Source: a virus
Direction: 5' to 3' (one strand)
IMG/VR virus record: IMGVR_UViG_3300045988_142974
Coordinates: 108,868 to 172,867 of that record
Length of the DNA: 64,000 nt
The position numbers were made by a program, and so were the translations under genes. The notes beneath the pieces are model-generated. The model was not told the DNA's origin, did not search any database, and saw only the letters and a list, made by a program, of their open reading frames with translations. Of the stretch, positions 827 through 24,410 are shown piece by piece (positions within the stretch are counted from its first letter, which is position 1; every line of letters begins with the position of its first letter).

Positions 827-1036
827 ATGGTAATGAGAGATAAAAGTTATAAAACAGTAGAGATTATTACTCTTATATGTTTTTCAATTAGTGTTATTAC
901 AGTATGTATTACACGCTTTATTCCATTTATTTTTCTGACATTACTCACATTCCCAATTTCTTTTAAATTATTAAAAGGGAAGGTTGACAGCCTTCCCAAG
1001 AATAAGGAGGACAAAAAAATATGTCAATTAGTTTAG
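827..1036 (+). CDS. small membrane protein, unknown function
   Basis: ATG 8 nt after GAGGAG; two hydrophobic helices; overlaps next start by 16 nt; no family recognised. Confidence 0.35.
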   Translation: MVMRDKSYKTVEIITLICFSISVITVCITRFIPFIFLTLLTFPISFKLLKGKVDSLPKNKEDKKICQLV

Positions 1037-1599: not shown

Positions 1600-1617
1600 A
1601 ATGGAAGGAGAATATAT

Positions 1618-2193
1618 ATGTCAGTAAATTTAGTAAAAGGACAGAAAATTAATTTATCTAAGGAAGTAGCAGGTGGTCTTACAAAGATTATGGTAGGACT
1701 TGGATGGGATGCTGTTAAGAAAGGATTCTTTGGTTCTAAGCCAAACATTGATTGCGATGCTTCGGCAATTATTTTAGGAAAAGATGATAAGTATCGTACA
1801 TGTGTTTATTATGGTGACAGATCAGCAGAAGACAGATGTGTGTATCATCATGGCGACAACCTCACAGGAGATGGAGACGGTGATGATGAGCAGATTACAG
1901 TTGACCTTGCGAATATTACAAATAAGGTTGAGAAGATTGTATTTGTAGTAAATATCTATGATTGTATTTCAAGAAAGCAGGATTTTGGACTTATCAAGAA
2001 TGCGTACATTAGACTTGTTGATGAGTCAACTGGTAAGGAAATTTGTAAATATAATCTTTCAGATGATTATGCTGGCAAGACAGCAATGGTATTTGCAGAG
2101 GTTTATAAGAAAGACGGAGAGTGGAAATTTAACGCCATCGGTCAGGGAACAAATGATTCAAGTGTTAGCGAATTAACAAGAAGATACAAGTAG
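1618..2193 (+). CDS. TerD-family stress protein
   Basis: NLVKGQKINL, GLGWD, DCDAS, GDNLTGDGDGDDE; SD GGAAGGAG. Confidence 0.9.
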   Translation: MSVNLVKGQKINLSKEVAGGLTKIMVGLGWDAVKKGFFGSKPNIDCDASAIILGKDDKYRTCVYYGDRSAEDRCVYHHGDNLTGDGDGDDEQITVDLANITNKVEKIVFVVNIYDCISRKQDFGLIKNAYIRLVDESTGKEICKYNLSDDYAGKTAMVFAEVYKKDGEWKFNAIGQGTNDSSVSELTRRYK

Positions 2194-2205
2194 GAGGATT
2201 TAATT

Positions 2206-2787
2206 ATGTCAGTTTCGTTAAGTAAAGGACAGAGAGTAGATTTAACAAAGGGTAGACCGTCATTAAAAAACATTCTTGTTGGACTTGGATGGGATATTAA
2301 TCATTATGACGGAGAAGCAGATTTTGATCTCGATGCCTCTGTGTTTATGACAAAAGAGAATGGTAAGGTTGGCAATGACGAGGATTTCATTTTCTATGGT
2401 AATCTTGAACATAGTTCAAAGAGTGTAAAGCATATGGGAGATAACCGTACAGGTGAGGGAGATGGAGATGATGAGGTTATTAAGATTAAACTTGATAAAA
2501 TCCCATCAGACTATGAGACTCTTGCTGTGACGGTCACAATTTATGATGCTGAGAGTAGACTTCAGAACTTCGGTATGGTTGGAAATGCATATGTGCGTGT
2601 AGTAGACGAAGAGACAGGCGAGGAACTTATTCGTTTTGATTTAAGTGAAGACTTCTCTACCGAGACTGCGTTAGTCGTAGCTGAAATATATAAACATAAT
2701 GGCGAATGGAAGTTTAAGGCTGTAGGAAGTGGCTATAACGGTGGATTAAAGGCATTATGTAATCAGTATGGAATTGATGCAGAGTAG
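2206..2787 (+). CDS. TerD-family stress protein
   Basis: SLSKGQRVDL, GLGWD, DFDLDAS, GDNRTGEGDGDDE; closest paralogue of 1021-1599. Confidence 0.9.
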   Translation: MSVSLSKGQRVDLTKGRPSLKNILVGLGWDINHYDGEADFDLDASVFMTKENGKVGNDEDFIFYGNLEHSSKSVKHMGDNRTGEGDGDDEVIKIKLDKIPSDYETLAVTVTIYDAESRLQNFGMVGNAYVRVVDEETGEELIRFDLSEDFSTETALVVAEIYKHNGEWKFKAVGSGYNGGLKALCNQYGIDAE

Positions 2788-2796
2788 GAGGATTGT

Positions 2797-3546
2797 ATGA
2801 CAAATTTTATGTTTATTATAATTGTGGTAATTGTATTAATTGCACTGATTCTTTTCTTTACTCCTTTTGGTAAACAGCTTAGAGTAAAGTTTAAAGGAAG
2901 AACAGATGAAGTAATGCGCCAGGATGCACAAACACCAGAAGGTGCTAGAGATTATTACAATGTAGCCATTAGAGAAAAGGAAGAATTTTATAACAAGGCT
3001 TCTGCTACATATGCAGAGATTTCAGGAAAGCGTGACACAGCAGAGAAAGATTTATACCAGGCGAACAAAGATATTATGCGTGTTACACAGCAGATTAACG
3101 CTTGTCTTGATGAGAACAAAGAAGATGAAGCAATGCAGTATGCAATGAAGAAGTCTACTTTGGAGAATAAGATTAATGTGCTAAAAGATACAATCGAAGA
3201 GATGAAAGAAGCACAGGCTCATCAGAAAGACATTCGTGATCAGGCAGCCGAAGAATTGCAGAAACTTAAAGAGGAAAAGGAACAGGTTCTTTTTCAGATG
3301 GAAGCTGATAGTCAGATTATCGAACTTCATCAGAGTATGGACAGTCTCAATACCAACAATGAGAGTGATAGAATGCTTGAAAGAGTTCGTGAAGGAGCAA
3401 GAAAGACAAGAGAACGTGCAGAAGGAAGTAGAATTGCATATGATTCTAGCGCACAGGCTAATGAGAGAAGACTTGCTAATTCTGAAAGAGAGCGCAATGC
3501 TCGTCAGATTCTTGATGATATGAAGAGACAGAGAGGTAATAAGTAA
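2797..3546 (+). CDS. membrane-anchored coiled-coil protein, PspA/IM30-like
   Basis: N-terminal TM helix then ~200 aa charged heptad-rich region whose layout resembles PspA; by-eye similarity only. Confidence 0.5.
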   Translation: MTNFMFIIIVVIVLIALILFFTPFGKQLRVKFKGRTDEVMRQDAQTPEGARDYYNVAIREKEEFYNKASATYAEISGKRDTAEKDLYQANKDIMRVTQQINACLDENKEDEAMQYAMKKSTLENKINVLKDTIEEMKEAQAHQKDIRDQAAEELQKLKEEKEQVLFQMEADSQIIELHQSMDSLNTNNESDRMLERVREGARKTRERAEGSRIAYDSSAQANERRLANSERERNARQILDDMKRQRGNK

Positions 3547-3638
3547 TGATTGTATTAAACATTGGAGTTTTCTTAATCTGTCTTGGTGTATGCTTTGGAG
3601 CAGGTTTTATCGTGGGAAAACGTAAGAAGAATAAATAA
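3546..3638 (+). CDS. 30-aa hydrophobic peptide (candidate)
   Basis: ATG overlaps upstream stop (TAATG); MIVLNIGVFLICLGVCFGAGFIVGKRKKNK = one TM helix plus basic tail; below ORF-track cutoff. Confidence 0.3.
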   Translation: MIVLNIGVFLICLGVCFGAGFIVGKRKKNK

Positions 3639-3774
3639 TTTAAGGGTTGGTAGGTGTTACAGCCTACTAGCTCTATCAAAGGGTAATAAAATAGACCTTT
3701 TAATTTATAAAACGGAGAATATAACATTAGAAACAATTAACAAAAATCAATATAAGAAAGAAGAGGTACAAAAT

Positions 3775-5838
3775 ATGGACGGATTTATGATGTTTAAAAA
3801 GGCTTTGCAGAAGCACTTCGATGAAATGCAGAAAGAGGCTACACATTTATTTGAGGTAAATGTAGATAAGGATGAATTATGGAATACATATCTTGATAGC
3901 TTTCCTGCCGGTACAAATGAGATTTTCAGAGAGCGTAGAGAACATGATTGCAGTTGTTGTAGACAGTTTATCAAGAATATTGGTTCTGCTGTCACCATTA
4001 AGGATAATCAGATTCACACAATCTGGGAACTGAATCTTGGTGATACAACATATCAGCCAGTATGCGATGCACTTGACGCTTTTGTAAAGGCTCATATAGT
4101 TACAGATATTTATACAACTAAGTTCCCTAAGATTGGTACAGATTTTAATTTTGAGGAAATCAATGGAAAGTCTCATAAGTGGGATCATTTCTTCTTAGAG
4201 CTTCCAAGTAAGTTTGTAAATAGAAGTAGCCGTTCCAACGAGGAAGTTAAAGGACAGTTCAGAGATACAAGAAATGTATTTAAGCGTTCTCTTGATGAGA
4301 TTACTATGGATGCACTCGATACAATTCTTGAACTTATCAACTCAAATACACTTTACAAGGGTGAAGAATGGAAGGGAGTACTCACAGAATTTAAGAAGTA
4401 TAAGAAGGAATACGATAAGCTGGCTTCTGATACTGAAAAGGATTTATATGCTTGGGAGAAGTCGGTAACGGCAGGTATGGCTATCGGTAGAATTAGAAAT
4501 CATTCTATTGGAACACTTCTTATCAATGTAAGTGAGGATATGGATCTTGACACAGCAGTTAAGAAGTATGAGCAGATTGTCGCTCCAAGTAATTATAAAA
4601 GACCAAAGGCTATTTTTACAAAGAAAATGCTTGAGGATGCAAAGAAGACCATTACAGAACTCGGTTATATGGATTCATTACAGAGAAGATTTGCTAATCT
4701 GAATGATATTACTGTAAATAATGTACTGTTCTCAAATAAGAGTGCTGCAAGAAGAATGGTAGGTGCAGATGATATTTTTGGTCAGATGGAAAAGGATGTT
4801 GCTGTAAGTCCTAAGAAGTTTTCTAAGGTTGAAGAGATTTCAGCACAGGATTTCATTGATAAGGTACTTCCAACTGCAAAGGAGATTGAAGCTTTTGTAG
4901 AGAATAAACATGAGAAGAACTTTGTTTCTATGATTGCACCTGTAAATCCAGATGCTAAGACAATGTTTAAATGGAACAATGGATTATCTTGGGCTTATTC
5001 AGGAAACATCACCGACTCTGATATGAAGCAGAATGTAAAAGCTGCTGGCGGTAATGTTGACGGTGTTCTTAGATTTTCAATCATGTGGAATGAAGGACAG
5101 AATGATAACAGCGATCTTGATGCGCATTGTAAAGAACCTGATGGTAACGAGATTTATTTCAGTAATTGTAGAAAACCAGAAACTTCAAGATGTGGAGGTC
5201 AGTTAGATATTGATATTACACGCCCTATGACGCAGATGGCAGGAAAACCTTCTGTGGAAAATATTACATGGGCAGATATGTCACGTATGAAGCCAGGTGT
5301 TTATAAGTTTTTTGTTAATCAGTTTGCAGCGAGAGGAAGTAAAGGATTTAAGGCAGAAATTGAATTCAATGGTGAGATTTTTGCGTTTGAATACAATAGT
5401 CCTGTTTCTGGTAATGTTCAGGTGGCAGAAGTTACACTTGACGAGAATGGCAACTTCTCAATTAAGGAAAAGCTGTCTGGAAGTTCATCTATTTCAAGTC
5501 GTGAAATTTGGGGTGTAAATACAAATCAGTTTGTTCCTGTATCAGTAATTAGTTACAGTCCAAACTATTTTGACGAGCAGGATGGAATTGGTCATAGACA
5601 TTTATTTTTCTTCCTGAAGGATTGTGTAAATAGCGAAGAGCCTAATGGATTCTATCTTGAGTTCCTTGATAATGATTTAATGAAGCATAAGAGAGTGTTC
5701 GAGGCTTTAGGTGCTAAGTGTCATGTAGAAGATACTGATGATCAGCTTTCAGGAATTGGTTTTTCGATGACAAAGAGAGCAGATTTAGTTGTTAAGGTTA
5801 AGGGCGCAATAGAGCGTGTAATGAAGATTAAGTTTTAA
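3775..5838 (+). CDS. 687-aa protein of unknown function; possible divergent TerD-like C-terminal domain
   Basis: Track ORF 3583-5838 trimmed to ATG 3775 (AAGAGG 8 nt upstream). HDCSCCRQF Cys cluster near N-terminus. C-terminal LRFSIMWN..DLDAHC..GGQLDIDI parallels TerD motif order. Confidence 0.7.
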   Translation: MDGFMMFKKALQKHFDEMQKEATHLFEVNVDKDELWNTYLDSFPAGTNEIFRERREHDCSCCRQFIKNIGSAVTIKDNQIHTIWELNLGDTTYQPVCDALDAFVKAHIVTDIYTTKFPKIGTDFNFEEINGKSHKWDHFFLELPSKFVNRSSRSNEEVKGQFRDTRNVFKRSLDEITMDALDTILELINSNTLYKGEEWKGVLTEFKKYKKEYDKLASDTEKDLYAWEKSVTAGMAIGRIRNHSIGTLLINVSEDMDLDTAVKKYEQIVAPSNYKRPKAIFTKKMLEDAKKTITELGYMDSLQRRFANLNDITVNNVLFSNKSAARRMVGADDIFGQMEKDVAVSPKKFSKVEEISAQDFIDKVLPTAKEIEAFVENKHEKNFVSMIAPVNPDAKTMFKWNNGLSWAYSGNITDSDMKQNVKAAGGNVDGVLRFSIMWNEGQNDNSDLDAHCKEPDGNEIYFSNCRKPETSRCGGQLDIDITRPMTQMAGKPSVENITWADMSRMKPGVYKFFVNQFAARGSKGFKAEIEFNGEIFAFEYNSPVSGNVQVAEVTLDENGNFSIKEKLSGSSSISSREIWGVNTNQFVPVSVISYSPNYFDEQDGIGHRHLFFFLKDCVNSEEPNGFYLEFLDNDLMKHKRVFEALGAKCHVEDTDDQLSGIGFSMTKRADLVVKVKGAIERVMKIKF

Positions 5839-5859
5839 TTAGAAAAGGAGATTATTATT

Positions 5860-6249
5860 ATGACAAACAACGAATTATTTATCAATGCAACAAGAGCAAA
5901 CTATCAGTTCCCATTCAGAGGAATGATTAACGTAATTGATTTGTGGGATTTATCTCTCACAAATCTGGACTCAGTGTTTAAGACACTCAATGCAGAAGTA
6001 AAGAAGTCTGAGGAAGAAAGTCTTCTAAATACCAAGTCAAAGGAAGATGAGGAGATTTCTAACAAGATTGAAATTGTTAAGTATATTGTTGACGTGAAGC
6101 TGGATGAGAAGAAGAAGAGAGAAGACGCTAAGAAAAATGCTGAGATGAGACAGAGATTGCTTGAAATCAAAGCTAAGAGACAGGATGCAGCACTTGAGAA
6201 TATGTCTGATGAGGATCTGGATAAGGCACTTGCAGAATTAAGTGAGTAA
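5860..6249 (+). CDS. acidic/lysine-rich coiled-coil protein, unknown function
   Basis: SD AAGGAG 8 nt upstream; 129 aa; no motif recognised. Confidence 0.6.
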   Translation: MTNNELFINATRANYQFPFRGMINVIDLWDLSLTNLDSVFKTLNAEVKKSEEESLLNTKSKEDEEISNKIEIVKYIVDVKLDEKKKREDAKKNAEMRQRLLEIKAKRQDAALENMSDEDLDKALAELSE

Positions 6250-6258
6250 TTGTTATAA

Positions 6259-6310
6259 ATATACCATATATAGTATTAAAAATAAACGATATATACTATA
6301 TATGGTATAT
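6259..6310. repeat. 18-bp perfect inverted repeat (hairpin, 16-nt loop); candidate terminator / module boundary
   Basis: ATATACCATATATAGTAT (6259-6276) is the exact reverse complement of ATACTATATATGGTATAT (6293-6310); followed by ATTTT. Confidence 0.8.
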
Positions 6311-6423
6311 ATTTTACATTAGAATGAATCGCACATTTCTTTATGAAATAGATAATTTAATACATATATTAGAAAAATTCAAAAAAGAATGTCCTGAGCA
6401 TATTGGAGAATGGAGATAACATT

Positions 6424-6972
6424 ATGACGAATAAAGAGCAAAATAATTTAAGCAAATACATAGCATTAATTCTTAGACACAGACCTGATGTTATTGGTAT
6501 CGCATTAGATGAACATGGTTGGGCTAACGTGTCAGATCTATTAAAAGGAATCAATAAAACTCAGACGATTACAATGAAAATGCTTGAAAAAATTGTAGAA
6601 GAAGATTCTAAACAGAGATATTCATTTAATCGAGAGAAGACGCTTATAAGAGCAAATCAAGGTCATTCTATAAAAGTTGATGTAGAATTGAAAGAGTGTA
6701 TGCCACCAGATATTTTATATCATGGAACGGGTGTCAAATATTGCTCTTCAATCAATAAACAAGGGTTAATATCCAAGAGTCGTTTATATGTCCATCTATC
6801 AAAAGATATTGAAACAGCAACAAATGTTGGCAGTAGACATGGAGAACCGTTTATTTATAAGGTTCGAGCAAAAGATATGTATAATGATGGATATAAATTC
6901 TTTTTATCTCAAAATGGGGTATGGCTTACAAAAGAAGTACCAATCTGTTATTTAGATGCGTTCTCGAAATAA
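6424..6972 (+). CDS. kptA: RNA 2'-phosphotransferase, Tpt1/KptA family
   Basis: [32 protein letters not shown] and ANQGHS, LYHGT motifs typical of KptA; start moved to ATG 6424 after GGAGA. Confidence 0.85.
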
Positions 6973-7043
6973 GGACAACAAGGACATTCCAAACTTCAAG
7001 GAACGAGTTGAAACAGATATATAAAATTTTGGAGGTTAAGACA

Positions 7044-8072
7044 ATGACAATTGAACAGATTAAGGACAAATTAAAATCAAAAGAGTATGACTTCCTGAGA
7101 ACAGATAAGAATTTGGGTAACAATATCATTATCTTAACTCTTGGTGGAAGTTATGCATATGGAACAAATAATGAGGGTAGCGATTTAGATATTCGTGGTT
7201 GTGCTTTGAATAGCAAGATGCAGATTCTTACAAATGAGAATTTTGAGCAGTTTGTAAACAATGAGACAGACACAACCATTTATGCCTTTAATAAGTTAGT
7301 AGCTTTGTTAAGTAATACAAACCCTAACACAATAGAAATGCTTGGAAATAAGCCAGAACACTATTTCTATGTATCTCCTATTGGTCAGGAACTTATTGAC
7401 AATGCGCATTTATTTTTATCAAAGAGAGCTTGTCATTCGTTTGGCGGTTATGCTAATCAGCAATTATACAGATTAAATCAGAAAGCTGCACATCAGATGT
7501 CGCAGTCTGAATTAGAGAAACATATTCTAAAGACTCTTGAATTTATGCAGACTGACTTCACAAAGAAATATACACCATATGAAGATGATTCTATGAAATT
7601 ATATATTGATAAAGCTGTGCAGGAAGGCTACGATACAGAAATCTTTATGGATATAAATCTTCATCATTACCCATTAAGAGATTATTGTTCTATGTGGAAT
7701 GAGCTTCAGAATACAGTTCGTCAATATGGAAAAATTGGTAAGAGAAATGAAAAAGCAATTGAACATGGTAAAATTGCTAAACATTCAATGCATCTTATTC
7801 GACTGTATATGATGTGCTTAGATATTCTTGAAAAAGAAAGAATAATTACATACAGAGAAGATGAGCATAATTTACTAATGGATATTCGCAATGGCAAGTA
7901 TTTGGATAGCAACGATCAGCCAATCCCAGAATTCTTTGAAATGGTAAATGATTATGAAAAGAGATTAGATTATGCGAAGAAAAACACAAGTCTTCCTGAT
8001 AATCCTAATTATAAGGCTATCAATGAATTTGTTGCTAGTGTAAATGAAAGGGTGGTAAAAGGTGAAATCTAA
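7044..8072 (+). CDS. Pol-beta-fold nucleotidyltransferase (resembles the RlaP / PF10127 RNA-repair-associated type as I recall it)
   Basis: ILTLGGSYAYGTNNEGSDLDIRG = GS-x-YG...SDxD NTase signature; start at ATG 7044 after GGAGG (track ORF 6921 overlaps kptA). Confidence 0.7.
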   Translation: MTIEQIKDKLKSKEYDFLRTDKNLGNNIIILTLGGSYAYGTNNEGSDLDIRGCALNSKMQILTNENFEQFVNNETDTTIYAFNKLVALLSNTNPNTIEMLGNKPEHYFYVSPIGQELIDNAHLFLSKRACHSFGGYANQQLYRLNQKAAHQMSQSELEKHILKTLEFMQTDFTKKYTPYEDDSMKLYIDKAVQEGYDTEIFMDINLHHYPLRDYCSMWNELQNTVRQYGKIGKRNEKAIEHGKIAKHSMHLIRLYMMCLDILEKERIITYREDEHNLLMDIRNGKYLDSNDQPIPEFFEMVNDYEKRLDYAKKNTSLPDNPNYKAINEFVASVNERVVKGEI

Positions 8073-9429
8073 TTTGAAGATTGAAATTCCATCTGGTGCA
8101 AATGAAATTATCCATAGTCTACAAAATAATGGATATGAAGCTTTCTTAGTCGGAGGATGTGTAAGAGATAGTATTCTTGGCAGACCAATTCACGATTATG
8201 ACATTACAACTTCTGCCACGCCAGATGAGATGATGGAAGTATTCAAGGACAAGAGAATTATTGAAACTGGATTACAGCATGGAACTATCACAATTTTAAT
8301 TGACGGTGAAGGATATGAATGTACCACTTACAGAATTGACGGTAATTACTCAGATAGTCGTAGACCTGATAGCGTAACATTTACACGAAATCTTAAAGAA
8401 GATTTAAAGCGTAGAGATTTTACAATTAATGCAATGGCTTACAATGATGAAGTTGGTCTTATAGATCCGTTTAATGGTATGGAAGATATTAAATACCACA
8501 AGATTAGATGTGTTGGCAGAGCAGAAGACAGATTTTCAGAAGATGCATTAAGAATTTTACGTGCCATTCGGTTTGCCTCACAGTTGGGATTTGTCCTTGA
8601 ACCTGATACAGATTGGCATATTTCTAAAATGTATAAGAATTTGGAGAATATATCTATTGAAAGGATCAATAGTGAATTTTGTAAAATTGCTGCATCGAGT
8701 GATTTCTGTGTACAAATGGTCTTATATCACGAAGTATTCTCGTTGTTCATTCCTGAAATTAAAGATATGTTTGGTTTTCAACAGAATAATCCATATCACA
8801 TGTATGATGTATGGAATCATACCGTACATGCAATAGAATATTGTGAATCCGATGATTTAGTAACAAGATTGGCAGTATTCTTTCACGATTTTGGTAAGCC
8901 ACACTGTTATCAAGATGGAGAAGATGGTATCAGACACTTTAAAGGTCATGGAAGAGTAAGTGCTGATATGACCAATGAGATTATGAAACGTCTTAGATTT
9001 GACAATGATACAAGAGAAAAGGTCATTGAATTAGTCTATTATCATGATGCTACTTTTGAGGTGGGAAAGAAATATGTCAAGAGATGGCTTAATAAAATTG
9101 GAGAAGAACAGTTCAGAAGGTTATTAAATGTTCGTAGAGCTGATATTAAAGCACAAGCAGACATGGCTCAGGAAACAAGATTACAGAAAATTGATAACAT
9201 CGAATATATTTTAGAAGAAGTCTTACAGGATGATGAATGTTTTTCTCTAAAGGATTTAGCAGTTAATGGAAAAGATGTAATGGATACAATGCTCATTAAA
9301 AGTGGAAAAGAAGTTGGCTACTGGCTCAATGAAATCTTAACTCGTGTAATAGATGGGAGATTAAAAAATGATAAAGAGGATCTTATTTATTGGATGACTG
9401 GTATTACAGATGGTTGGATAGAATATTAA
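8062..9429 (+). CDS. cca: CCA-adding tRNA nucleotidyltransferase with HD domain
   Basis: GGCVRDSILGRPIHDYDITT, RRDFTINAMA head-domain motifs; FHDFGKP HD motif; GTG start overlaps upstream stop by 11 nt. Confidence 0.85.
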   Translation: MKSNLKIEIPSGANEIIHSLQNNGYEAFLVGGCVRDSILGRPIHDYDITTSATPDEMMEVFKDKRIIETGLQHGTITILIDGEGYECTTYRIDGNYSDSRRPDSVTFTRNLKEDLKRRDFTINAMAYNDEVGLIDPFNGMEDIKYHKIRCVGRAEDRFSEDALRILRAIRFASQLGFVLEPDTDWHISKMYKNLENISIERINSEFCKIAASSDFCVQMVLYHEVFSLFIPEIKDMFGFQQNNPYHMYDVWNHTVHAIEYCESDDLVTRLAVFFHDFGKPHCYQDGEDGIRHFKGHGRVSADMTNEIMKRLRFDNDTREKVIELVYYHDATFEVGKKYVKRWLNKIGEEQFRRLLNVRRADIKAQADMAQETRLQKIDNIEYILEEVLQDDECFSLKDLAVNGKDVMDTMLIKSGKEVGYWLNEILTRVIDGRLKNDKEDLIYWMTGITDGWIEY

Positions 9430-9439
9430 CGGAGGTAAT

Positions 9440-10180
9440 ATGTACGAAAAATTAAAAGAATATATAAAAGAATCAAATAATATTGTATTCTTTGGTGGAG
9501 CAGGTGTATCAACTGAAAGTGGTATTCCTGATTTTCGTTCCAAGGATGGATTATATAATCAGCATGACGTTCAGTTTGATAAATACGAACCAGAATATCT
9601 TTTGAGTAGAGAATGTTTATATAATAATCCAAAGATATTTTATGAGTTCTATCGTCAGAAGATGGATACAAGAAATGTTGAACCAAACGTTACTCATAAG
9701 GTGCTTGCTAAGATGGAAGAAATAGGTAAGTTGAAAGCTATTGTAACACAGAATATTGATGGACTTCATCAGAAAGCTGGAAGTAAGAATGTCTTTGAGA
9801 TTCATGGAACTACTCAGAAGAATTATTGTAGTAAGTGTAAGATGAAATATCATTCTGATTTCTTGTTTAACACTAAAGATGCTATTCCAAAGTGTGAATG
9901 TGGTGGGCTGATTAGACCTGATGTGACTTTATACGGAGAGAATCTTCCTAACGAAGCTGTAAATGGAGCAATCAGAGCTATTCGAGATGCTGAAATGTTG
10001 ATTATTGGTGGCACTTCATTAAAAGTTTATCCAGCAGCTCATTATATTTCATATTTTAGTGGTAGACATTTGGTTGTTATCAATATGGAGAAAATTCAAG
10101 TGTTGTTGAATGAGGATACAGATCTGATGATTGTTGATTCGTTAGGTAATGTGTTCAGTGAAATTGATAAATGGATGTGA
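9440..10180 (+). CDS. NAD+-dependent protein deacylase, Sir2 family (canonical sirtuin)
   Basis: FFGGAGVSTESGIPDFRS, TQNIDGLH, catalytic EIHG, Zn ribbon CSKC...CECG. Confidence 0.9.
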   Translation: MYEKLKEYIKESNNIVFFGGAGVSTESGIPDFRSKDGLYNQHDVQFDKYEPEYLLSRECLYNNPKIFYEFYRQKMDTRNVEPNVTHKVLAKMEEIGKLKAIVTQNIDGLHQKAGSKNVFEIHGTTQKNYCSKCKMKYHSDFLFNTKDAIPKCECGGLIRPDVTLYGENLPNEAVNGAIRAIRDAEMLIIGGTSLKVYPAAHYISYFSGRHLVVINMEKIQVLLNEDTDLMIVDSLGNVFSEIDKWM

Positions 10181-11235: not shown

Positions 11236-11256
11236 TCATGTATAAAAATTTCTATC

Positions 11257-11428
11257 TTGGCGATTCAGCCAAATTTTCCAAATAAAAGTAACAAGAAATA
11301 TTTTTTCCTATGGTTTTAGCAGACGTGCAAATTCCATAGGATTTTACAACAAAATAATTAAGAAGAAAGGAATTAAGCAGTAACTCCTGGGTAATTATGG
11401 TTACGTAACCTCTGTAAAATAGTGTATT
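11257..11428 (+). promoter_or_regulatory. structured leader, copy A (homologous to 26049-26207)
   Basis: Hairpin TTGGC-gattca-GCCAA (11257-11272), GTAACAAG box, hairpin 11306-13/11334-41, AGAAAGG box, 12-bp palindrome GGTTACGTAACC (11399-11410). Confidence 0.55.
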
Positions 11429-12352
11429 TTGACAGAGAATAATGAAAAAAATAATTCTCAAGGGCTACGAGTATTAAGTTTATGTGGTGGCGTTGAAACA
11501 GGATTGTATGCGTTACAGAAGCTCGGAATACCTATAAGAGAATATCATACATATGAAATTTTGCCAGAAGCCATAGCAGTTTCTCAGTACCATTTTCCGT
11601 TTGTGGTACATCATGGCGATTTATATGAAGCGGATTTTGAAGAGTTTAAAGGATTTGATTTACTGTTGGCAGGAACTTGTTGCCAGTCACTTTCAAGAGT
11701 GCGAATTGAAAGTAAAGAGGTCAATAATGGTCTTGATGGTAAGTCAGGAATTTTCTTTAAAGCAATTGAGTGTCTTAGGGCAATTCAGCCCAAATATTTC
11801 ATGTTTGAAAATGTAATACCAAGTAGTGACGAAGATCTGAAGACAATGACAGAATGCATTGGTGTAGAACCTATTTTGATTAATTCAGGAAAATTTTCTG
11901 CGCAGAGTCGTGAAAGATATTATTGGACAAACATACCATTAGGTAAATTACCTGATAAATCTCCATTAGTTTTAAAAGATATTATGGAGAATAGTGTAGA
12001 TGAGAAATATTTCTATAAGAAAGATTTTGAAATCTTGGATATGAGTAAACGTGTATGTGCAGAGTTAAAAGTTAATTCTATGGAAATGAATAGAAGAATT
12101 TATAATCCAGATTTTAAGTGCTGCACATTAACTTGTATAAATGGTGGATATCATGAAAAGAAAGTATTAGATAGTAGCAGACCACGAAAACTTACAGAAG
12201 TTGAATATGAAAGATTACAGGGATTACCTGATAATTTTACAAAAGTTCAGCTTAATGGTCGTTGGTTATCATACTCAAAAAGATGTAGTTTGATGGGCAA
12301 TGGATGGAATGAATCTACTGTTGAATGGATCTTGAGTGGGTTAAGAGAATAA
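11429..12352 (+). CDS. DNA (cytosine-5)-methyltransferase
   Basis: LSLCGGVETG (motif I), GTCCQSLS (catalytic Cys), MFENV, QSRERYYW, GNGW. Only in-frame start is TTG 11429 with no SD. Confidence 0.85.
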   Translation: MTENNEKNNSQGLRVLSLCGGVETGLYALQKLGIPIREYHTYEILPEAIAVSQYHFPFVVHHGDLYEADFEEFKGFDLLLAGTCCQSLSRVRIESKEVNNGLDGKSGIFFKAIECLRAIQPKYFMFENVIPSSDEDLKTMTECIGVEPILINSGKFSAQSRERYYWTNIPLGKLPDKSPLVLKDIMENSVDEKYFYKKDFEILDMSKRVCAELKVNSMEMNRRIYNPDFKCCTLTCINGGYHEKKVLDSSRPRKLTEVEYERLQGLPDNFTKVQLNGRWLSYSKRCSLMGNGWNESTVEWILSGLRE

Positions 12353-13620: not shown

Positions 13621-14403
13621 ATGGCATATATAAAACAATATTGGCAGAATAAAGAACAAAGAGCGACAATTGCTCGTGAACACACAAAAGAGATGCGGAA
13701 TAAATATGGTCGTTGTATTCAAACTTCAATTTTGGGTACAAAAATTTATGATACAAATTCATTTAATAGGGATTTTGAAGAGAATATCGAAGATAAAGAT
13801 ACCAAGATTATTGTAGAGGATATTGATAGTGTAGGTGCTGTAATGAAATACGGCAATCCAAGTACAGCAGTTCTTAATTTTTCTTCATATAAAAATCCAG
13901 GTGGAATGTTTTTAAATGGTAGTAAGGCACAGGAAGAGTGCTTATGTCACGAATCATTCTTATACAATGTGTTGAGTCAGTTTGTATTAAAGTTTTATGA
14001 TTGGAATAATCGACATAAGAATAAGGCTTTATATTTGAATAGAGGATTATTTTCTCCCGGTGTTTGGTTCTTTAGAGAGAATAGCCATGTAGAGTGTAGT
14101 GTTATTACTTGTGCTGCTCCAAATAAGTCGGCTGCTCAGAAATATCAGAACGTGTCAGACGAAGAGAATACTAAAGCATTAAGAAGTCGAATTAAATTTG
14201 TTCTTAATATGGCGAAAGACAACAATGTGAGCACTCTTATTTTAGGAGCTTATGGATGTGGAGTATTTGGGCAAGACGCAACAGAAGTAGCGAATATATT
14301 TAAAGAATATTTAACTACTACTCATAAATGCTTCGATACTGTTGTATTTGCTGTTCCAAATGGCAGAGATGGTAACTATGAGAAGTTTGTAAAAGTATTT
14401 TAA
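13621..14403 (+). CDS. PARG-like macrodomain protein (TIGR02452-type)
   Basis: VLNFSSYKNPGGMFLNGSKAQEECLCHESFLY, ITCAAPN, LILGAYGCGVFGQD match my recollection of the TIGR02452 macrodomain family. Confidence 0.75.
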   Translation: MAYIKQYWQNKEQRATIAREHTKEMRNKYGRCIQTSILGTKIYDTNSFNRDFEENIEDKDTKIIVEDIDSVGAVMKYGNPSTAVLNFSSYKNPGGMFLNGSKAQEECLCHESFLYNVLSQFVLKFYDWNNRHKNKALYLNRGLFSPGVWFFRENSHVECSVITCAAPNKSAAQKYQNVSDEENTKALRSRIKFVLNMAKDNNVSTLILGAYGCGVFGQDATEVANIFKEYLTTTHKCFDTVVFAVPNGRDGNYEKFVKVF

Positions 14404-15302: not shown

Positions 15303-15593
15303 ATGAAGAAGAAAATTTTAGCAGTTGCATTAGGATTAACATTGTGTTTTGGAATGACTGGATGCACTGCAAGCGATGATTTGGCAGCCTCTAATATTCC
15401 AAATGAACAACAGTCTAAATGTGAACATGAATACAAAGAAATTGATTGGCATGTTCAGTCATATTCGGACGGTAGTAATGTTGGTTATGATATTTATTGC
15501 CCTAAATGTGAATATGAAATAAATGTTAGTTATAAAGAGTGGAATAAAATTCAAGCAGATATGGAATATAAGAAGGAAAATAAAGCACAGTAA
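15303..15593 (+). CDS. lipoprotein
   Basis: MKKKILAVALGLTLCFGMTGC signal peptide with lipobox; two CxxC pairs. Confidence 0.65.
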   Translation: MKKKILAVALGLTLCFGMTGCTASDDLAASNIPNEQQSKCEHEYKEIDWHVQSYSDGSNVGYDIYCPKCEYEINVSYKEWNKIQADMEYKKENKAQ

Positions 15594-15609
15594 ACCGAAG
15601 TTTCTTTTG
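15586..15609 (+). promoter_or_regulatory. dyad motif copy
   Basis: cacagtaaa ccgaag tttcttttg; left half contains the stop codon of 15303-15593. Confidence 0.6.
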
Positions 15610-15667
15610 AATTTTCAAGGGCAAGTCGCTCAAAAATCCAAGTAAAAGAGAATATTACAAAGAAAGG

Positions 15668-15716
15668 ATAATTAGTAGCTGGCTTTAAAGGTTGCAACCG
15701 CTTTGGTACTAATTAT
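15668..15716 (+). promoter_or_regulatory. leader hairpin enclosing palindrome GGTTGCAACC (15690-15699)
   Basis: 10-bp stem ATAATTAGTA / TACTAATTAT; 3' arm reaches first base of TTG start 15716. Confidence 0.6.
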
Positions 15717-16522
15717 TGAAACTACAAAATGATAAGTATTACACACCAATAGAATTGGCGAATTACTGTTGGGATAAGGTTTTTGAAGTTGTTGGCGAAG
15801 AAAATATATCAGAGATTATTGAGCCTAGTGTTGGGAATGGCAGTTTTCTTCATCATGCAGAGCAACTACCACATTTTGCGTATGATATTGAACCTGAGTG
15901 CGAATCTAATTTTACTCATATCTTTAAGCAGGATTATTTAAGTGCTGATATAAAGTATCTTTGGGGAAGGCTGATAATAGGAAATCCACCATACGGAAGA
16001 TGTTTAAATATGGCACAGAAATTTTTTAAGAAGTCAGTTGAAATTGCAGATACAATTGCATTTATTCTTCCTATAAGTCAATTGAATAACACAAGGTCAA
16101 TGTATGAGTTTGATTTGGTATATAGTGAAGATTTAGGTATCCAGCATTATACAGATAGAGATTTACATTGTTGCTTTAATATTTATCGCAGACCTGATAG
16201 TGGAGAATTAAATAGTAAACCAGTCGCAAAATTAAAGGATGTCACTATATATCGGCAGGATAGCAAGGGATATAACGAGAAAGATTTTGATGTTCGTATG
16301 TGCTATTGGGGTGATGGATCTGCTGGAAAGATATTAAAGGATGATGAACATTATTCGGCAGAATATAAAATCAAGATAAATAATGAAGAATTAAAAGAAG
16401 ATATTATTGAAGTGCTTACTACATTTGATTGGAAGGAATATCTAAATTGTATTGCAATGAGAAAAATACAACAATTTCACATTGTCGATGTCTTAAAGAA
16501 GAATATCAAAGGAATTAAATAA
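15716..16522 (+). CDS. N6-adenine DNA methyltransferase (gamma-type, NPPY)
   Basis: DKYYTP, EPSVGNGSF (motif I), IIGNPPYG (motif IV); TTG start, no SD. Confidence 0.8.
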   Translation: MKLQNDKYYTPIELANYCWDKVFEVVGEENISEIIEPSVGNGSFLHHAEQLPHFAYDIEPECESNFTHIFKQDYLSADIKYLWGRLIIGNPPYGRCLNMAQKFFKKSVEIADTIAFILPISQLNNTRSMYEFDLVYSEDLGIQHYTDRDLHCCFNIYRRPDSGELNSKPVAKLKDVTIYRQDSKGYNEKDFDVRMCYWGDGSAGKILKDDEHYSAEYKIKINNEELKEDIIEVLTTFDWKEYLNCIAMRKIQQFHIVDVLKKNIKGIK

Positions 16523-16541
16523 GAGAATAATACATTGAAAG

Positions 16542-16581
16542 GAGCAAGAGATTTGCTGCAGCGTTAAATCTGGATTTGCTC
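16542..16581 (+). promoter_or_regulatory. leader hairpin with apex palindrome GCTGCAGC (16555-16562)
   Basis: Nested stems GAGCAA/TTGCTC and AGATTT/AAATCT; 5' arm overlaps the only GGAG (16541-44). Confidence 0.6.
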
Positions 16582-16591
16582 TGAGTAAGAA

Positions 16592-17467
16592 ATGTTAGAG
16601 ATTAACAAAATATACAACGAAGATTGCTTTGAAGGTATGAAAAAGATTGATGATAAGTCAATAGATTTTATTTTTACGGATCTTCCTTATAATACGACTA
16701 ATAATTCTTGGGAATGTGAAATGCCGTTAAATGATTATGTCGAGTTATCAGGTCAATATTTTTATGAAACAGATTTATTCAAGTTAGCTCAAGTAACAAA
16801 TAGCAGTCTCGAATATACAAGAGATTGGTTCTACGAGAATAAGAAAGATGGCTTATGGAATCATTACAATCGAATCATCAAAGATAACGGTTGTATTGCA
16901 CTATGGGCGCAGTCACCTTTTGATAAGAAACTCGCTTGTAGTAATGAAAAGCTATATCGCTATGAATGGATTATCGAAAAAACCAAAGCAACTGGTCATC
17001 TAAATGCAAAGAAAATGCCTATGAAGGCACACGAAAATGTCTTAATTTTCTATAAGAAACTCCCTACTTACAATCCACAAATGACAGAAGGACATACACC
17101 TGTTCATTCTTATACAAAACATACAACAGATGGTAGCTGTTATGGTGCTACAAAGACTGGTATTTCAGGTGGTGGTAGTACACAAAGATACCCAAGAGAT
17201 GTTCAGCAGTTCAAGTGGGACACTCAGAAAAGTAGCTTACATCAATGTCAAAAGCCTGTTGAAGCGTGTGAGTATTTTATTAAAACCTATACTAATCCAG
17301 GAGATTTAGTTCTTGATTCGTGTGCAGGAAGTTGTACCACTGCAGTTGCAGCTTTGAATACAGGTAGAAATTACATATGTTTTGAGAAGGACAAGGATAT
17401 TTTTGAGGTTGGAAGTAAGAGAGTAGCTGAATATGCTAATCAGGATTTATTGATAAGTGCAACTTAA
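16592..17467 (+). CDS. DNA methyltransferase, N4/N6 beta class
   Basis: FTDLPYN (DPPY-type motif IV) N-terminal, DSCAGSCTTAVAA (motif I) C-terminal. Confidence 0.85.
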   Translation: MLEINKIYNEDCFEGMKKIDDKSIDFIFTDLPYNTTNNSWECEMPLNDYVELSGQYFYETDLFKLAQVTNSSLEYTRDWFYENKKDGLWNHYNRIIKDNGCIALWAQSPFDKKLACSNEKLYRYEWIIEKTKATGHLNAKKMPMKAHENVLIFYKKLPTYNPQMTEGHTPVHSYTKHTTDGSCYGATKTGISGGGSTQRYPRDVQQFKWDTQKSSLHQCQKPVEACEYFIKTYTNPGDLVLDSCAGSCTTAVAALNTGRNYICFEKDKDIFEVGSKRVAEYANQDLLISAT

Positions 17468-17490
17468 TTAAGAGAATAAGAACAATGAAA

Positions 17491-17531
17491 GGAGACGAGG
17501 TTCGTGTACACAAGAAGGAATTCCTTACTCC
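17491..17531 (+). promoter_or_regulatory. leader: GGAG / CTCC pairing enclosing palindromes GTGTACAC and AAGGAATTCCTT
   Basis: GGAG 17491-94, CTCC 17528-31; palindromes 17504-17511 and 17515-17526. Confidence 0.55.
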
Positions 17532-17540
17532 AAGTAATTT

Positions 17541-18275
17541 ATGAAATATATGGGTTCAAAATCTCGTATAGTTGATAATATTTTACCGATTATTCAAGAA
17601 AGATTGCGAGATTATAATATCAAAACATACATAGAGCCATTTTGCGGCGGCTGTAATGTAATCGACAAAGTTCAATGTGATATAAAAATCGCTTCTGACA
17701 ATCATAAATATCTTATTGAAATGTTCAAGAATCTAAATCAGATTCAAAATCTCCCAGAATTTATTACAAAAGAACATTACTCAGATGTAAGAAAGTGTTT
17801 TAATAAAGGATTATCCCAATATCCAGATTGGTATATTGGTGCAGTTGGCTTTCTTTCAAGCTATAACGGAAGATTCTTTGATGGAGGTTACTCAGGTATC
17901 GTATATACAAAAGCTGGAACTGAAAGAAATTATTACGATGAAGCTAAGAGAAATTTGTTAGAGCAGATTCCAAGGTTAGAAGATATTCAATTCCAATGTG
18001 GAGATTATAAAGAGTTATATTCTGATAAAGTTGACTGCTTATTTTATTGCGATATTCCATATAAGGGTACGAAACAGTATGGATCAAGTAAGAATTTTGA
18101 TTATGACAGATTCTGGAATTGGGCTGAGAAGATGAGCGAGAAAAATATTGTCTTAGTCAGTGAGCATGAAGCTCCTTCTGGATGGGAATGTATTTGGCAA
18201 CAGGAAGTCAAGAGAACGATTGACAATACGAAGCAAGTTAAAGCAGTAGAAAAGTTATTTGAAATTAGAGAATAA
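17541..18275 (+). CDS. Dam-like N6-adenine DNA methyltransferase (D12 class)
   Basis: MKYMGSKSRI, EPFCGG, YCDIPY. Confidence 0.85.
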   Translation: MKYMGSKSRIVDNILPIIQERLRDYNIKTYIEPFCGGCNVIDKVQCDIKIASDNHKYLIEMFKNLNQIQNLPEFITKEHYSDVRKCFNKGLSQYPDWYIGAVGFLSSYNGRFFDGGYSGIVYTKAGTERNYYDEAKRNLLEQIPRLEDIQFQCGDYKELYSDKVDCLFYCDIPYKGTKQYGSSKNFDYDRFWNWAEKMSEKNIVLVSEHEAPSGWECIWQQEVKRTIDNTKQVKAVEKLFEIRE

Positions 18276-18294
18276 ATATCTGGGAGGTGACAAT

Positions 18295-18681
18295 TTGAAT
18301 GAACCAAAGTTTTATGTACAGGAATTAATATCTACGGAATATATGGACAAAAGAGTTTTAATCCTATATCCATATGAACTTAGCAATGAGCCGATATTAA
18401 AAGACAATATTCCCAAAATGACAAAAGTGATAAGAGAATATATAAAAGAGTCTGAAATGTATAGAAAGTGTGTAGATACAATTCCAAATCTTATATGGGA
18501 TTCTCAAAAATTATCTATGCAGAATGAAGCTGATGAACATCAAAGAAAAGCTGATGAACTTGCAGAAATAATGAATGAAGGTATCAGTCCTTATGCGTGG
18601 TATGTTAAAGGTAGGTTTGATGGAGAGATAGGTGGATTTCATTACAATGTAGATAATATAGTTTATTTGGATAGAAACTAG
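18295..18681 (+). CDS. hypothetical protein
   Basis: TTG 4 nt after GGAGGTGA; track start 18259 overlaps upstream gene. Confidence 0.5.
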   Translation: MNEPKFYVQELISTEYMDKRVLILYPYELSNEPILKDNIPKMTKVIREYIKESEMYRKCVDTIPNLIWDSQKLSMQNEADEHQRKADELAEIMNEGISPYAWYVKGRFDGEIGGFHYNVDNIVYLDRN

Positions 18682-18780
18682 CAAGAAATTTTGGTTTCAA
18701 GGTTTGTCACGAAAACTATATAATATTCGGGATAAAAAAGAGAATATATCAATGTAATTACAATTAAGGAAAGGAAAGAC

Positions 18781-18820
18781 GTTCACATGTGAGTAAAGCT
18801 GCGCAGCTACTATGGTGAAC
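18781..18820 (+). promoter_or_regulatory. leader hairpin with apex palindrome AGCTGCGCAGCT (18797-18808)
   Basis: GTTCAC (18781-86) / GTGAAC (18815-20); ends 4 nt before TTG 18825. Confidence 0.6.
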
Positions 18821-18824
18821 AAAT

Positions 18825-19661
18825 TTGAAAAATACATATATTAAATCGCCTCTAAATTATGTCGGAGGCAAGTATAAGTTACTACCAATTATTGTACCAA
18901 TGTTTCCAGATAAGATAAATACTTTTGTAGATTTATTTGGTGGAGGTTTTAATGTCGGTATTAATGTAAAAGCTGATCATATTATCTACAATGATATATG
19001 TGAGCAGGTAGTTGGTTTTCTAAGATATTTACAAGGTTCAAATATTGAAGAAGTATTATATAAGATTGATTCATATATTAGTAAGTATGGATTAACGAAA
19101 GAAAACAAAGAAGGATATTTACTGTTTAGAAAAGAATATAACACAGGTATTAAAGATCCAATTAAATTCTATACGCTTTTATGTTATGCGTTCAATAATC
19201 AAATCAGATTCAATTCCAAAGGTGAATATAACATGCCTTTTGGTAAAGACAGATCCAGTTTTAATCCCACTCTTAGACAAAAATTTATAGATTTTCATAA
19301 GCAACTGAATGAAATAGATTGTAGTTTCTTAAATATTCCATTTGAGAGATTTGATTTTTCTGATTTTACGGAAGGTGATTTTGTTTATGCAGATCCACCA
19401 TATTTTAATTCTGTTGCTACATACAATGAAAACGGTGGCTGGACAGAAGAAATGGAGAATAAATTACTAGAGACTCTTGATGCTTTGAATGATAAAGGCG
19501 TTAAGTTTGCATTAAGTAATAATCTCAAATATGACAATCCATTACTTGATAAATGGAAAGATAAATACATAGTTCATTATTTAAAGCATGATTATAGTAA
19601 CTGTAATTACCAGAAAAAGGATAAGAGTGCAGATTGTGAGGTATTAATCACAAATTATTAA
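18825..19661 (+). CDS. Dam-like N6-adenine DNA methyltransferase (D12 class)
   Basis: LNYVGGKYKLL, FVDLFGGGFNV, YADPPY; TTG start, no SD. Confidence 0.85.
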   Translation: MKNTYIKSPLNYVGGKYKLLPIIVPMFPDKINTFVDLFGGGFNVGINVKADHIIYNDICEQVVGFLRYLQGSNIEEVLYKIDSYISKYGLTKENKEGYLLFRKEYNTGIKDPIKFYTLLCYAFNNQIRFNSKGEYNMPFGKDRSSFNPTLRQKFIDFHKQLNEIDCSFLNIPFERFDFSDFTEGDFVYADPPYFNSVATYNENGGWTEEMENKLLETLDALNDKGVKFALSNNLKYDNPLLDKWKDKYIVHYLKHDYSNCNYQKKDKSADCEVLITNY

Positions 19662-24386: not shown

Positions 24387-24410
24387 CACAGTAAATTCAG
24401 GTTTCCTTTG
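24387..24410 (+). promoter_or_regulatory. dyad motif copy, abutting 14-bp palindrome CTTTGTATACAAAG (24406-24419)
   Basis: cacagtaaa ttcagg tttcctttg; starts 4 nt after stop 24383. Confidence 0.6.

Follow-up and report, generated by a model that had tools for sequence, protein, structure and literature searches.

Why should two different genes of one phage, one for a C5 cytosine DNA methyltransferase and one for a PAPS-reductase-like protein, be preceded by what looks like the same leader? The question is raised by a stretch of 64,000 nucleotides from the IMG/VR virus record IMGVR_UViG_3300045988_142974 (positions 108,868 to 172,867 of that record; hereafter the window), in which the regions before the two genes, region A (11236-11442) and region B (25999-26210), share a series of sequence blocks and hairpins. 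The original prediction took the two regions for a structured RNA, either a cis-regulatory leader or a small RNA, in which the stems change and the pairing is kept. We arrive at another answer: with a probability of about 0.85, A and B are paralogous invertible DNA switches (invertons) of a large temperate Lachnospira phage with SPbeta-like replication genes, and what they switch are DNA-modification genes.

It is clear that A and B are homologous. Their local alignment scores 79, compared with 29.4 ± 5.3 in 500 dinucleotide shuffles (z = 9.3), and this is the top score among all pairs of intergenic regions in the window. The blocks that had been aligned by eye are present in both, namely hairpin 1 (TTGGC-GATTCA-GCCAA at 11257-11272 and AGCC-ATTC-GGCT at 26049-26060), the GTAACAAG box (11288-11295 and 26073-26080), hairpin 2 with differing stems (CCTATGG at 11307-13 with CCATAGG at 11334-40 in A; TAGTG..CACTA at 26100-26117 in B), the shared block consisting of AGAAAGG (11364-70 and 26142-48) and AGTAA..GGTAATT (11379-96 and 26156-74), and a CTCT..TGTAAA tail that leads into the start codons, TTG at 11429 and ATG at 26208. 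The shorter relative proposed at 15648-15716 is not supported: its region scores 38 with A, within the background of other intergenic pairs (36-49). This region C (15594-15715) was rejected as a third copy; a profile of 47 cassettes, run over the window at a threshold as lax as E ≤ 10, matches nothing besides A and B.

To see the two regions in relatives, we retrieved two sets of 80 loci, one surrounding homologues of the methyltransferase and the other surrounding those of the PAPS-reductase-like protein. In nhmmer searches with A, most loci match on the + strand. In five loci (L014, L016, L017, L034 and L035), positions ~60-206 of A match on the minus strand with their position unchanged, and the first ~70 positions remain on the + strand. 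B is likewise reverse-complemented in place in L083 and L084. In the alignments, the reverse-complemented stretch runs between AGAAATATTTTTT(T) and AAAAAAATAATTCT in A and between GAAATAGTATTTT and AAAATACTAATTC in B, and the invertible unit is the 3' ~135-150 bp of each region, with ~125-135 bp between the inverted sites. A copy is called OFF when the segment is flipped away from the gene. The segments and their bounding repeats in the window are as follows.

11294 to 11307, + strand: left inverted repeat and recombination site of A, AGAAATATTTTTTC (GAAA, spacer, TTTC); breakpoint in L014, L016, L017, L034 and L035
11308 to 11443, + strand: invertible segment of A in the ON orientation; reverse-complemented in relatives at the same position
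11444 to 11458, + strand: right inverted repeat of A, GAAAAAAATAATTCT, within the methyltransferase coding sequence (codons EKNNS)
26082 to 26096, + strand: left inverted repeat of B, AAAAATAATATTTTC, degenerate here; relatives have GAAATAGTATTTTC
26097 to 26222, + strand: invertible segment of B in the ON orientation; reverse-complemented in L083 and L084
26223 to 26236, + strand: right inverted repeat of B, AAAAATACTAATTC, within the coding sequence

A census with a covariance model of the 3' half of the cassette counted 17 of 95 cassette copies as flipped. Ten of 74 are OFF at the first methyltransferase site, 2 of 7 at the PAPS-reductase-like site and 5 of 14 at a third paralog, which in many relatives adjoins the 5' side of a second C5 methyltransferase gene (536 amino acids; a gene not in this window) and is found in both orientations. 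Diverged orthologues 5' of the first methyltransferase also occur in both orientations (clades L044-52, L055-60 and L063-66). Where two switches are neighbours, all four combinations of ON and OFF were seen (L051, ++; L048, -+; L049, +-; L052 and L014, --). The flipped interior is 100% identical between L025 (ON) and L072 (OFF), and their 1-kb flanks are 99.3-99.4% identical on both sides; three further pairs have 100% identical interiors (L043, ON, with L014, OFF; L081 with L083; L055 with L057). Moreover, the repeats of a pair differ at one outer position (GAAAT on the left; GAATT when the right one is reverse-complemented), and whichever way the segment points, this base belongs to the flank, which places the strand exchange inside the T-rich core. 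We are thus highly confident that site-specific inversion recurs here at fixed breakpoints.

In one metagenome contig (ERZ1026854 NODE-13901; L303:2050-2440), two C5 methyltransferase genes diverge from a single A-type cassette, which lies between their 5' ends; a perfect inverted repeat of 35 bp is common to the two genes, and the cassette is oriented ON with respect to the left one and OFF with respect to the right one. The arrangement is either a natural two-enzyme toggle, possibly from recombination between two switches, or a chimeric assembly. Recombination between switches may, as this contig would illustrate, re-wire which methyltransferase a cassette drives.

The inverted repeats are 13-15 bp long. 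Their pattern in all paralogs is GAAA-N6-TTTC on the left and RAAA-N6'-(A/C)TTC on the right. The two 6-bp spacers of one switch are reverse complements of each other; between the switches compared, the spacers differ.

Switch A: spacer TATTTT(T)
Switch B: spacer TAGTAT
Third paralog, type a: spacer TTATGC
Third paralog, type b: spacer TATTAT
L044 clade: spacer TTTTTC

Inverted arms around an asymmetric spacer that is matched between partners, with crossover within the spacer or T-run, are the layout of tyrosine-recombinase core sites. Judging from this layout, private spacers would stop the switches of one genome from recombining with each other and so allow them to flip independently. Within the window the match between partners is imperfect: the left spacer of B is TAATAT and the right one TAGTAT, in a repeat of the pattern (G)AAATA(G)TATTTTC, and the A copy has a left run of 6 T (11301-11306) against 7 A on the right (11445-11451). 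Over ~127 loci the homopolymers of A-type repeats vary from T6 to T10 and from A6 to A8. Equal 7/7 runs are found in 16 of 17 flipped A-type copies and copies with unequal runs are ON in 32 of 33, and as these copies are mutually related, the counts are hints, suggestive only, that run-length slippage can lock a switch.

How would a flip affect the adjacent gene? The answer lies at the 3' end of the segment, which holds the start codon and the first 4-5 codons of the following gene.

11429 to 12352, + strand: C5 cytosine DNA methyltransferase, 307 amino acids (Pfam PF00145, E = 2.3e-20); start codon within the invertible segment
26208 to 27257, + strand: PAPS-reductase-like gene of the ATP-pyrophosphatase superfamily (Pfam PF01507, E = 5e-13); start codon within the invertible segment

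From the start codon the reading frame continues across the right repeat into the gene, the junctions (marked by a slash) being TTG ACA GAG AAT AAT / GAA AAA AAT AAT TCT... in A and ATG AAC AAT GAA AAT / AAA AAT ACT AAT TCA... in B. Since each segment ends with a start codon reading into the gene, both window copies are ON. The methyltransferase starts with the TTG at 11429 and not with the ATG at 11442, which is in another frame and is mutated in many relatives. In OFF copies, an in-frame stop stands directly 5' of the right repeat (TAG in the A-type L016, TAA in the B-type L083) and no start codon is left upstream of catalytic motif I, and the genes and repeats are intact. We are highly confident of this start-codon coupling at the level of the sequence, by which orientation would decide whether the adjacent gene can be expressed. 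In one sister contig (L290:14921-16077), a methyltransferase gene call is shortened (223 amino acids, with a faint Pfam match) and follows a 485-nt gap; this may fit the effect of an OFF-state cassette on annotation.

Within IMG/VR, the cassette is confined to one family of phages and is joined there to several kinds of target gene. Its core pattern, AGAAAGG-N4-9-GTAAATTCTAG, has 97 exact matches in 2.9 million IMG/VR contigs, all on large (90-210 kb) contigs of one family; of these cassette copies 75 are ON, 12 OFF and 10 uncalled. At 60% identity, at least 9 clusters of target genes are joined to the cassette, and one N-terminal peptide, e.g. MTENKEKNNYCE, is often fused to different enzyme bodies. 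Eight target representatives were scanned: seven are C5 methyltransferases (PF00145), among them a circularly permuted one (L204, 449 amino acids) with motif IV N-terminal and motif I near the C-terminus, and the eighth, of 252 amino acids, is without a family match. The PAPS-reductase-like gene of the window is an additional target.

The anatomy of the cassette was read from an alignment of 47 cassette sequences. In the window its elements are the following, the first two of A and the first of B lying outside the invertible segment.

11257 to 11287, + strand: A, hairpin 1 (TTGGC-GATTCA-GCCAA) with its ATTTTCCAAATAAAA tail, terminator-like
11288 to 11295, + strand: A, GTAACAAG box, abutting the left recombination site; it remains with the left flank in flipped copies
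11307 to 11340, + strand: A, hairpin 2
11364 to 11370, + strand: A, AGAAAGG
11379 to 11396, + strand: A, AGTAACTCCTGGGTAATT
11399 to 11410, + strand: A, 12-nt palindrome GGTTACGTAACC
11410 to 11415 with 11432 to 11437, + strand: A, hairpin 4, CTCTGT pairing with ACAGAG
11429, + strand: A, TTG start and first 5 codons
26049 to 26080, + strand: B, hairpin 1 (AGCC-ATTC-GGCT) and GTAACAAG box
26100 to 26117, + strand: B, hairpin 2, TAGTG-GTTGCAAA-CACTA
26142 to 26148, + strand: B, AGAAAGG
26156 to 26174, + strand: B, AGTAAACCTATAGGTAATT
26176 to 26189, + strand: B, palindrome AGATTGCGCAATCT
26185 to 26191 with 26201 to 26207, + strand: B, hairpin 4, AATCTCT pairing with AGAGATT
26208, + strand: B, ATG and 5 codons

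Hairpin 1, with AATTTTCCAAA(T)AAAA, and the GTAACAAG box sit 5' of the left repeat and keep their orientation when the segment is flipped. At ~34685 and ~36257, other genes of the window are likewise followed by clear hairpin-1 copies that have this loop and a AATTTTCCAA-type tail; less exact variants lie near 10900 and 35070, and hairpin 1 and its tail precede most A-type cassettes irrespective of the following gene. Hairpin 1 is a general gene-end element of the phage, probably a weak terminator, and not part of a dedicated leader.

Inside the segment, hairpin 2 adjoins the left repeat; it has variable stems and often a GTTGCAAA loop, and is followed by a T-rich stretch. In one paralog it scored as a sense-strand terminator (CCTTGAAAGCAAGG and T6), placed at the promoter-distal end. 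Next comes a conserved block, GAAAGG-N15-17-(A)GTAA(A)TTCTAG(G)ATAA, which has no compensatory pattern: CTCCT varies to ATTCT, and GAAAGG is invariant. In all paralogs this block of ~45 nt (GAAAGG...TCTAGGATAA) precedes the leader at a near-constant spacing. Because of its position, its constant spacing and the terminators upstream, we are moderately confident in inferring that it is a promoter, read by a phage polymerase or with a non-standard sigma factor. Near the L051 cassette lies an open reading frame that looks sigma-like, judged by eye from its translation.

The flip could also act on translation only, the segment having no promoter of its own and transcripts reading through from upstream, with inversion supplying or removing the start codon and the leader. 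We consider this possible, though rather unlikely. It agrees with the lack of a sigma-70-like promoter in our scans of the segment, with the arrangement of the genes, all on one strand in long co-directional arrays, and with the start codon and in-frame stop, which clearly depend on orientation. However, such read-through would be blocked in the ON state by the terminator-like hairpins upstream, of which hairpin 1 is external to the segment and hairpin 2 internal (in one paralog a stem with T6), and a ~45-nt block conserved in sequence stands at near-constant spacing before the leader of every paralog.

The palindrome that follows the block had been described as a third RNA hairpin. The perfect palindromes, GGTTACGTAACC at 11399-11410 and AGATTGCGCAATCT at 26176-26189, are real, but the dyad pairs through its centre. 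Further variants of the 12-nt dyad are GATTGCGCAATC, GCTTGTACAAGC, AGTTGTACAACT and GAATGCGCATTC. Throughout the alignment 282 of 282 cells pair, three G-T wobbles being the sole departures from Watson-Crick pairing; 5 of the 6 pairs are changed on both sides, and the covariation score is 0.525 vs 0.208 ± 0.020 in shuffles. The central two pairs, which are sterically impossible in a hairpin and needless there, are always complementary. This points to a symmetry of the DNA rather than an RNA stem-loop, and the dyad looks like a candidate binding site of a symmetric protein dimer, at roughly the position of an operator. Its centre (GCGC, ACGT, GTAC or ATAT) was also considered as the methyltransferase's own target and rejected, because the centres do not follow the downstream gene and ATAT is without cytosine.

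Hairpin 4 lies directly 5' of the start codon, or around it in A-type copies, and has a conserved (T)AAAATA loop. Its arms differ by paralog (CTCTGT/ACAGAG, AATCTCT/AGAGATT, AATCCC/GGGATT, TCCCT/AGGGA, GCCTT/AAGGC, TTCCCT/AGGGAA and ACCTCT/AGAGGT). In a per-family shuffle test, these 7-8 different complementary arm pairs give a combined p = 4.5e-5 (Fisher), though some of the families depend on one another, and for L063 and L054 six bases at the start of the test sequence, outside the scored stretch, were filled in by the author. A covariance-model pair count gives 68.7% paired, no better than controls, but the alignment is out of phase there, with an 18-nt loop in A-type copies and three stem registers, which makes the figure uninformative. 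The covariance model of the 3' half (R1) re-finds all cassettes. Of all the elements, hairpin 4 alone may act in the mRNA.

What remains, then, of a ~165-nt structured RNA, riboswitch-like or small, common to both genes by virtue of a common fold? Its appeal is evident: stems change and pairing is kept, the arms of hairpin 4 vary in complementary pairs, the three wobbles in the palindrome fall on the sense strand as G-T, and the whole segment folds with z-scores of -2.9 (A) and -1.9 (B). We nevertheless regard it as improbable. Hairpin 1 lies outside the inherited, flipping unit and recurs after unrelated genes; the palindrome is self-complementary through its centre; the GAAAGG...GGTAATT block has no conserved helix and its change from CTCCT to ATTCT is uncompensated; the model count for hairpin 4 does not rise above controls; the short hairpins have weak z-scores (-0.7 to -3.0); and the inversions are left unexplained. 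Rfam 15 has no match, either over the whole window at the gathering threshold or in the two regions at E ≤ 1, in line with the earlier remark that no known riboswitch was recognised. Thus the homologous regulatory cassettes, and hairpins with changed stems and kept pairing, survive from the original prediction, whereas the single RNA gives way to inverting DNA, which explains the architecture. Of the compensatory changes, those in the arms of hairpin 4 are supported by the per-family test, and the AGAAAGG...GGTAATT block is conserved as sequence, not as a helix; the idea of an RNA leader is partly supported and holds at most for hairpin 4, beside the start codon.

It is very improbable that the two orientations are assembly artefacts or ancient fixed inversions instead of programmed switching. 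The evidence does come from assembled contigs of different samples, and L303 is possibly chimeric at the locus. Repeats of only 13-15 bp, however, are shorter than assembly k-mers and reads and too short to cause misassembly, and inversion has exactly these breakpoints at each of three paralogous sites and in several clades that have diverged. There are also ON/OFF pairs with identical interiors, one of them with near-identical flanks, and the genes and repeats of OFF copies are intact. Equally hard to credit is a miniature inverted-repeat transposable element inserted either way round upstream of several genes: short length, terminal inverted repeats, several copies per genome and many gene bodies joined to it would suit such an element, but one locus can have it in either orientation, the junctions then lie at identical positions, there is no target-site duplication, the outer repeat bases remain with the flank, the right repeat and first codons belong to the reading frame of the gene, and the pattern is restricted to one phage family.

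Several points weigh against the view that A and B are working invertons. Foremost is the invertase. With regular expressions and phmmer, no serine or tyrosine recombinase was found within ~3-15 kb of any cassette locus scanned; nor was there one in the 10 kb adjoining the window on its left, and these searches left aside the remaining ~70-130 kb of the phage genomes. Pfam and PHROGs searches on ~50 open reading frames of the window returned a single recombinase, the integrase at the right end.

62738 to 63919, + strand: tyrosine integrase (PF00589), at the prophage end; sole recombinase gene of the window

Further, the differences in orientation are between contigs of different samples, and a metagenome scan with the right-repeat pattern gave mostly low-complexity noise and 18 relevant loci, among which no same-sample ON/OFF pair was established. 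Scans of A and B for sigma-70 promoters and for terminators yielded nothing convincing, and the segment gave no promoter of the sigma-70 type. For the PAPS-reductase-like target, NCBIfam assigns no function. Finally, the A and B copies of the window may switch poorly or be locked ON, given the spacer mismatch in B and the unequal runs in A.

The integrase itself is probably not the invertase. Its att core, ACATTC-CATGATA-GAATGT, taken from the prophage/host junction, is unlike the switch sites, and its close relatives are on only few contigs of the family, a weak point in that the scan finds close relatives only. Features of the Hin/Gin/Cin type were looked for as well: there is no serine-recombinase motif or homologue in the window or the scanned cassette loci, and the repeats are 13-15 bp long, not ~26-bp hix-like. 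With moderate confidence, inferred from the form of the sites, we favour a recombinase of the tyrosine class, whose gene may belong to the phage or to the host.

On the inverton reading, the switch would work as follows. In the ON state the order is a terminator-like hairpin, GAAAGG-N15-17-TCTAG(G)ATAA as the presumed promoter, the 12-nt dyad, a short hairpin, and the start with 4-5 codons. A site-specific recombinase would exchange strands in the T-rich spacer and flip the segment, after which an in-frame stop would stand before the gene, the start codon would be missing and the presumed promoter would face away (OFF). Common arms with private spacers would let the switches of one genome flip one by one, and a gut prophage could probably turn each of its DNA-modification genes on and off in this way. 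With moderate confidence, we take the probable role to be a phase-variable pattern of DNA modification, set by orphan C5 methyltransferases and one PAPS-reductase-like gene. A possible benefit is bet-hedging between restriction of unmodified and of modified DNA, or epigenetic phase variation of the lysogen. The stronger version, a combinatorial epigenetic lottery in which several methyltransferases and the PAPS-reductase-like gene, each with its own heterospecific switch, give up to 2^n modification states in virions or in the lysogen, has in our view an even chance of being right.

The remainder of the window tells what kind of phage carries the switches. It has 32.5% G+C and essentially all its genes on the + strand. 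Genes for replication and nucleotide metabolism (DnaE-type polymerase, RecD2, DnaB, primase, NAD-ligase and NrdD) are accompanied by genes for RNA repair (Pnkp/RNA ligase, CCA-adding enzyme, Tpt1, RlaP and Thg1), three TerD proteins, Sir2, PARG-macro and several DNA methyltransferases; a tRNA/tmRNA scan of the window found none. The best similarity of its DnaE, 38% identity, is to YorL of SPbeta-group Bacillus phages. In sister contigs, the DNA past the integrase matches a gene on the chromosome of Lachnospira intestinalis at 98% identity, and this flank, with the integrase at the right end, marks the window as the right arm of a large temperate Lachnospira phage. Related IMG/VR contigs are 90-210 kb long, and the contig family that bears the cassette appears to consist of SPbeta-like Lachnospira prophages. 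A search for near-identical isolate phages gave none, and a search with the methyltransferase found no relative in the GTDB genomes searched. At the prophage/host junction (window 63920-64000; L161:7180-7440 vs L168), identity to the L. intestinalis chromosome starts at ACATTCCATGATAGAATGT, an inverted repeat around a 7-bp core that is probably the att core of the integrase.

Other features of the window deserve record. Genes resembling counter-defence and RNA-repair functions (the three TerD, Tpt1, RlaP, CCA-adding enzyme, Sir2, PARG-macro, a Pnkp/RNA ligase fusion and Thg1) form dense clusters at 1021-10180, 13621-14403, 21424-23622 and 32318-33175; sister contigs also have NAD-salvage genes in this region, and in one sister contig (L289:3045-4331) a gene of the IS605 OrfB/TnpB type has been inserted, with the TerD genes to its right. 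The stretch 15716-19661 holds a run of additional DNA methyltransferase genes that lack a flip-switch (a PHROG methyltransferase-like gene at 15716, an N6_N4 one at 16592, and two of the D12/Dam class at 17541 and 18825), each preceded by an intergenic region with AGAGAATA and then GAAAGGAG. The octamer AGAGAATA has 42 copies in the window, all on the + strand, where 7.6 are expected counting both strands (e.g. 10869, 14845, 15647, 16522, 17471, 18739, 30369, 34709, 35104, 36299 and 49108). Many copies are 10-40 nt 5' of gene starts or overlap the preceding stop codon, and the octamer may be a phage-specific promoter or -10-like element. A second motif, CAGTAAA-N7-TTTCTTTTG, spans the stop codons of unrelated genes at 15588-15609, 24389-24410, 26007-26028, 32264-32285 and ~51912, with one copy directly upstream of switch B. 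Two long AT-rich palindromes lie in intergenic regions, at 6262-6320 (ATACCATATATAGTAT...ATACTATATATGGTAT) and at 62660-62712, directly 5' of the integrase (AAGAAGTACA...TGTACTTCTT).

Invertons are a bacterial bet-hedging device. The present switches resemble E. coli fimS (FimB/FimE), the Mpi promoters of Bacteroides fragilis and cwpV/flgB/pdcB of Clostridioides difficile (RecV) in that a short segment bounded by inverted repeats lies upstream of the regulated gene (PMC9286219; PMC7446863; PMC11602134). Those bacterial switches are 150-300 bp long, several independent ones occur per genome, as here, and their recombinase may be encoded far off and may serve several switches. Unlike bacterial invertible promoters, the switches described here are phage-borne, have their right repeat within the coding sequence, carry the start and first codons, and have orphan DNA methyltransferases as targets. 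By the position of the right repeat they fit the term "partial intergenic" inverton (PMC10028968). Programmed inversion on a phage genome, yielding two phage types from one genome, is familiar from the Gin/G segment of Mu and the Cin/C segment of P1 (Van de Putte and Goosen 1992, as cited in PMC13501310). In those systems kilobase segments swap tail-fibre C-termini by means of an adjacent serine invertase and an enhancer, whereas here ~130 bp turn DNA-modification genes on or off and no serine recombinase is nearby in the scanned loci.

Methylation patterns are reversibly switched by phasevarions and by hsdS "epigenetic invertons" as well (PMC7672463; PMC11741434; PMC13076061). The known cases are bacterial; their mechanism is either slippage at repeats in mod genes or a reshuffling of the target-recognition domains of hsdS, whereas here whole phage C5 methyltransferase genes would be flipped on and off by a start-codon cassette. 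The SPbeta-group Bacillus phages SPR, phi3T and rho11s, likewise large and temperate and with hosts among the Firmicutes, have a related polymerase of the DnaE type (38% identity) and carry orphan C5 methyltransferases for self-protection (PMC8270828). They have single multispecific enzymes, in contrast to the arrays of separate methyltransferases, several of them behind a flip-switch, in the present family; no invertible control of the SPbeta-group enzymes was found in the literature searched. With their common GAAA/TTTC arms and private 6-bp spacers, the sites are like the heterospecific lox and FRT variants of Cre and Flp, which have common arms and differing spacers. Such variants recombine only between sites with matching spacers. 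The lox and FRT variants are engineered, whereas the present arrangement is apparently natural and its enzyme is a putative tyrosine recombinase.

As far as the literature searched goes, there is no report of phage methyltransferases under invertible control, and for viral invertons it goes no further than a tentative proposal, "suggested" in a methods paper of 2026 (PMC13501310). If the combinatorial reading holds, it would be the first phage-encoded phase-variable DNA-modification system found in that literature, and a natural use of spacer specificity like that of lox variants. The case also carries a lesson for annotation: homologous phage leaders with covarying stems can signal invertible DNA, and in OFF-state assemblies gene callers will shorten or overlook the target gene. 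If the switches are active, the private spacers within common arms constitute a natural set of orthogonal recombination sites, and the phage can vary its own modification pattern from particle to particle, which bears on hosts with restriction-modification and with modification-dependent restriction. By the same token, an active prophage of this family could impose phase-variable methylation on Lachnospira, an abundant gut commensal.

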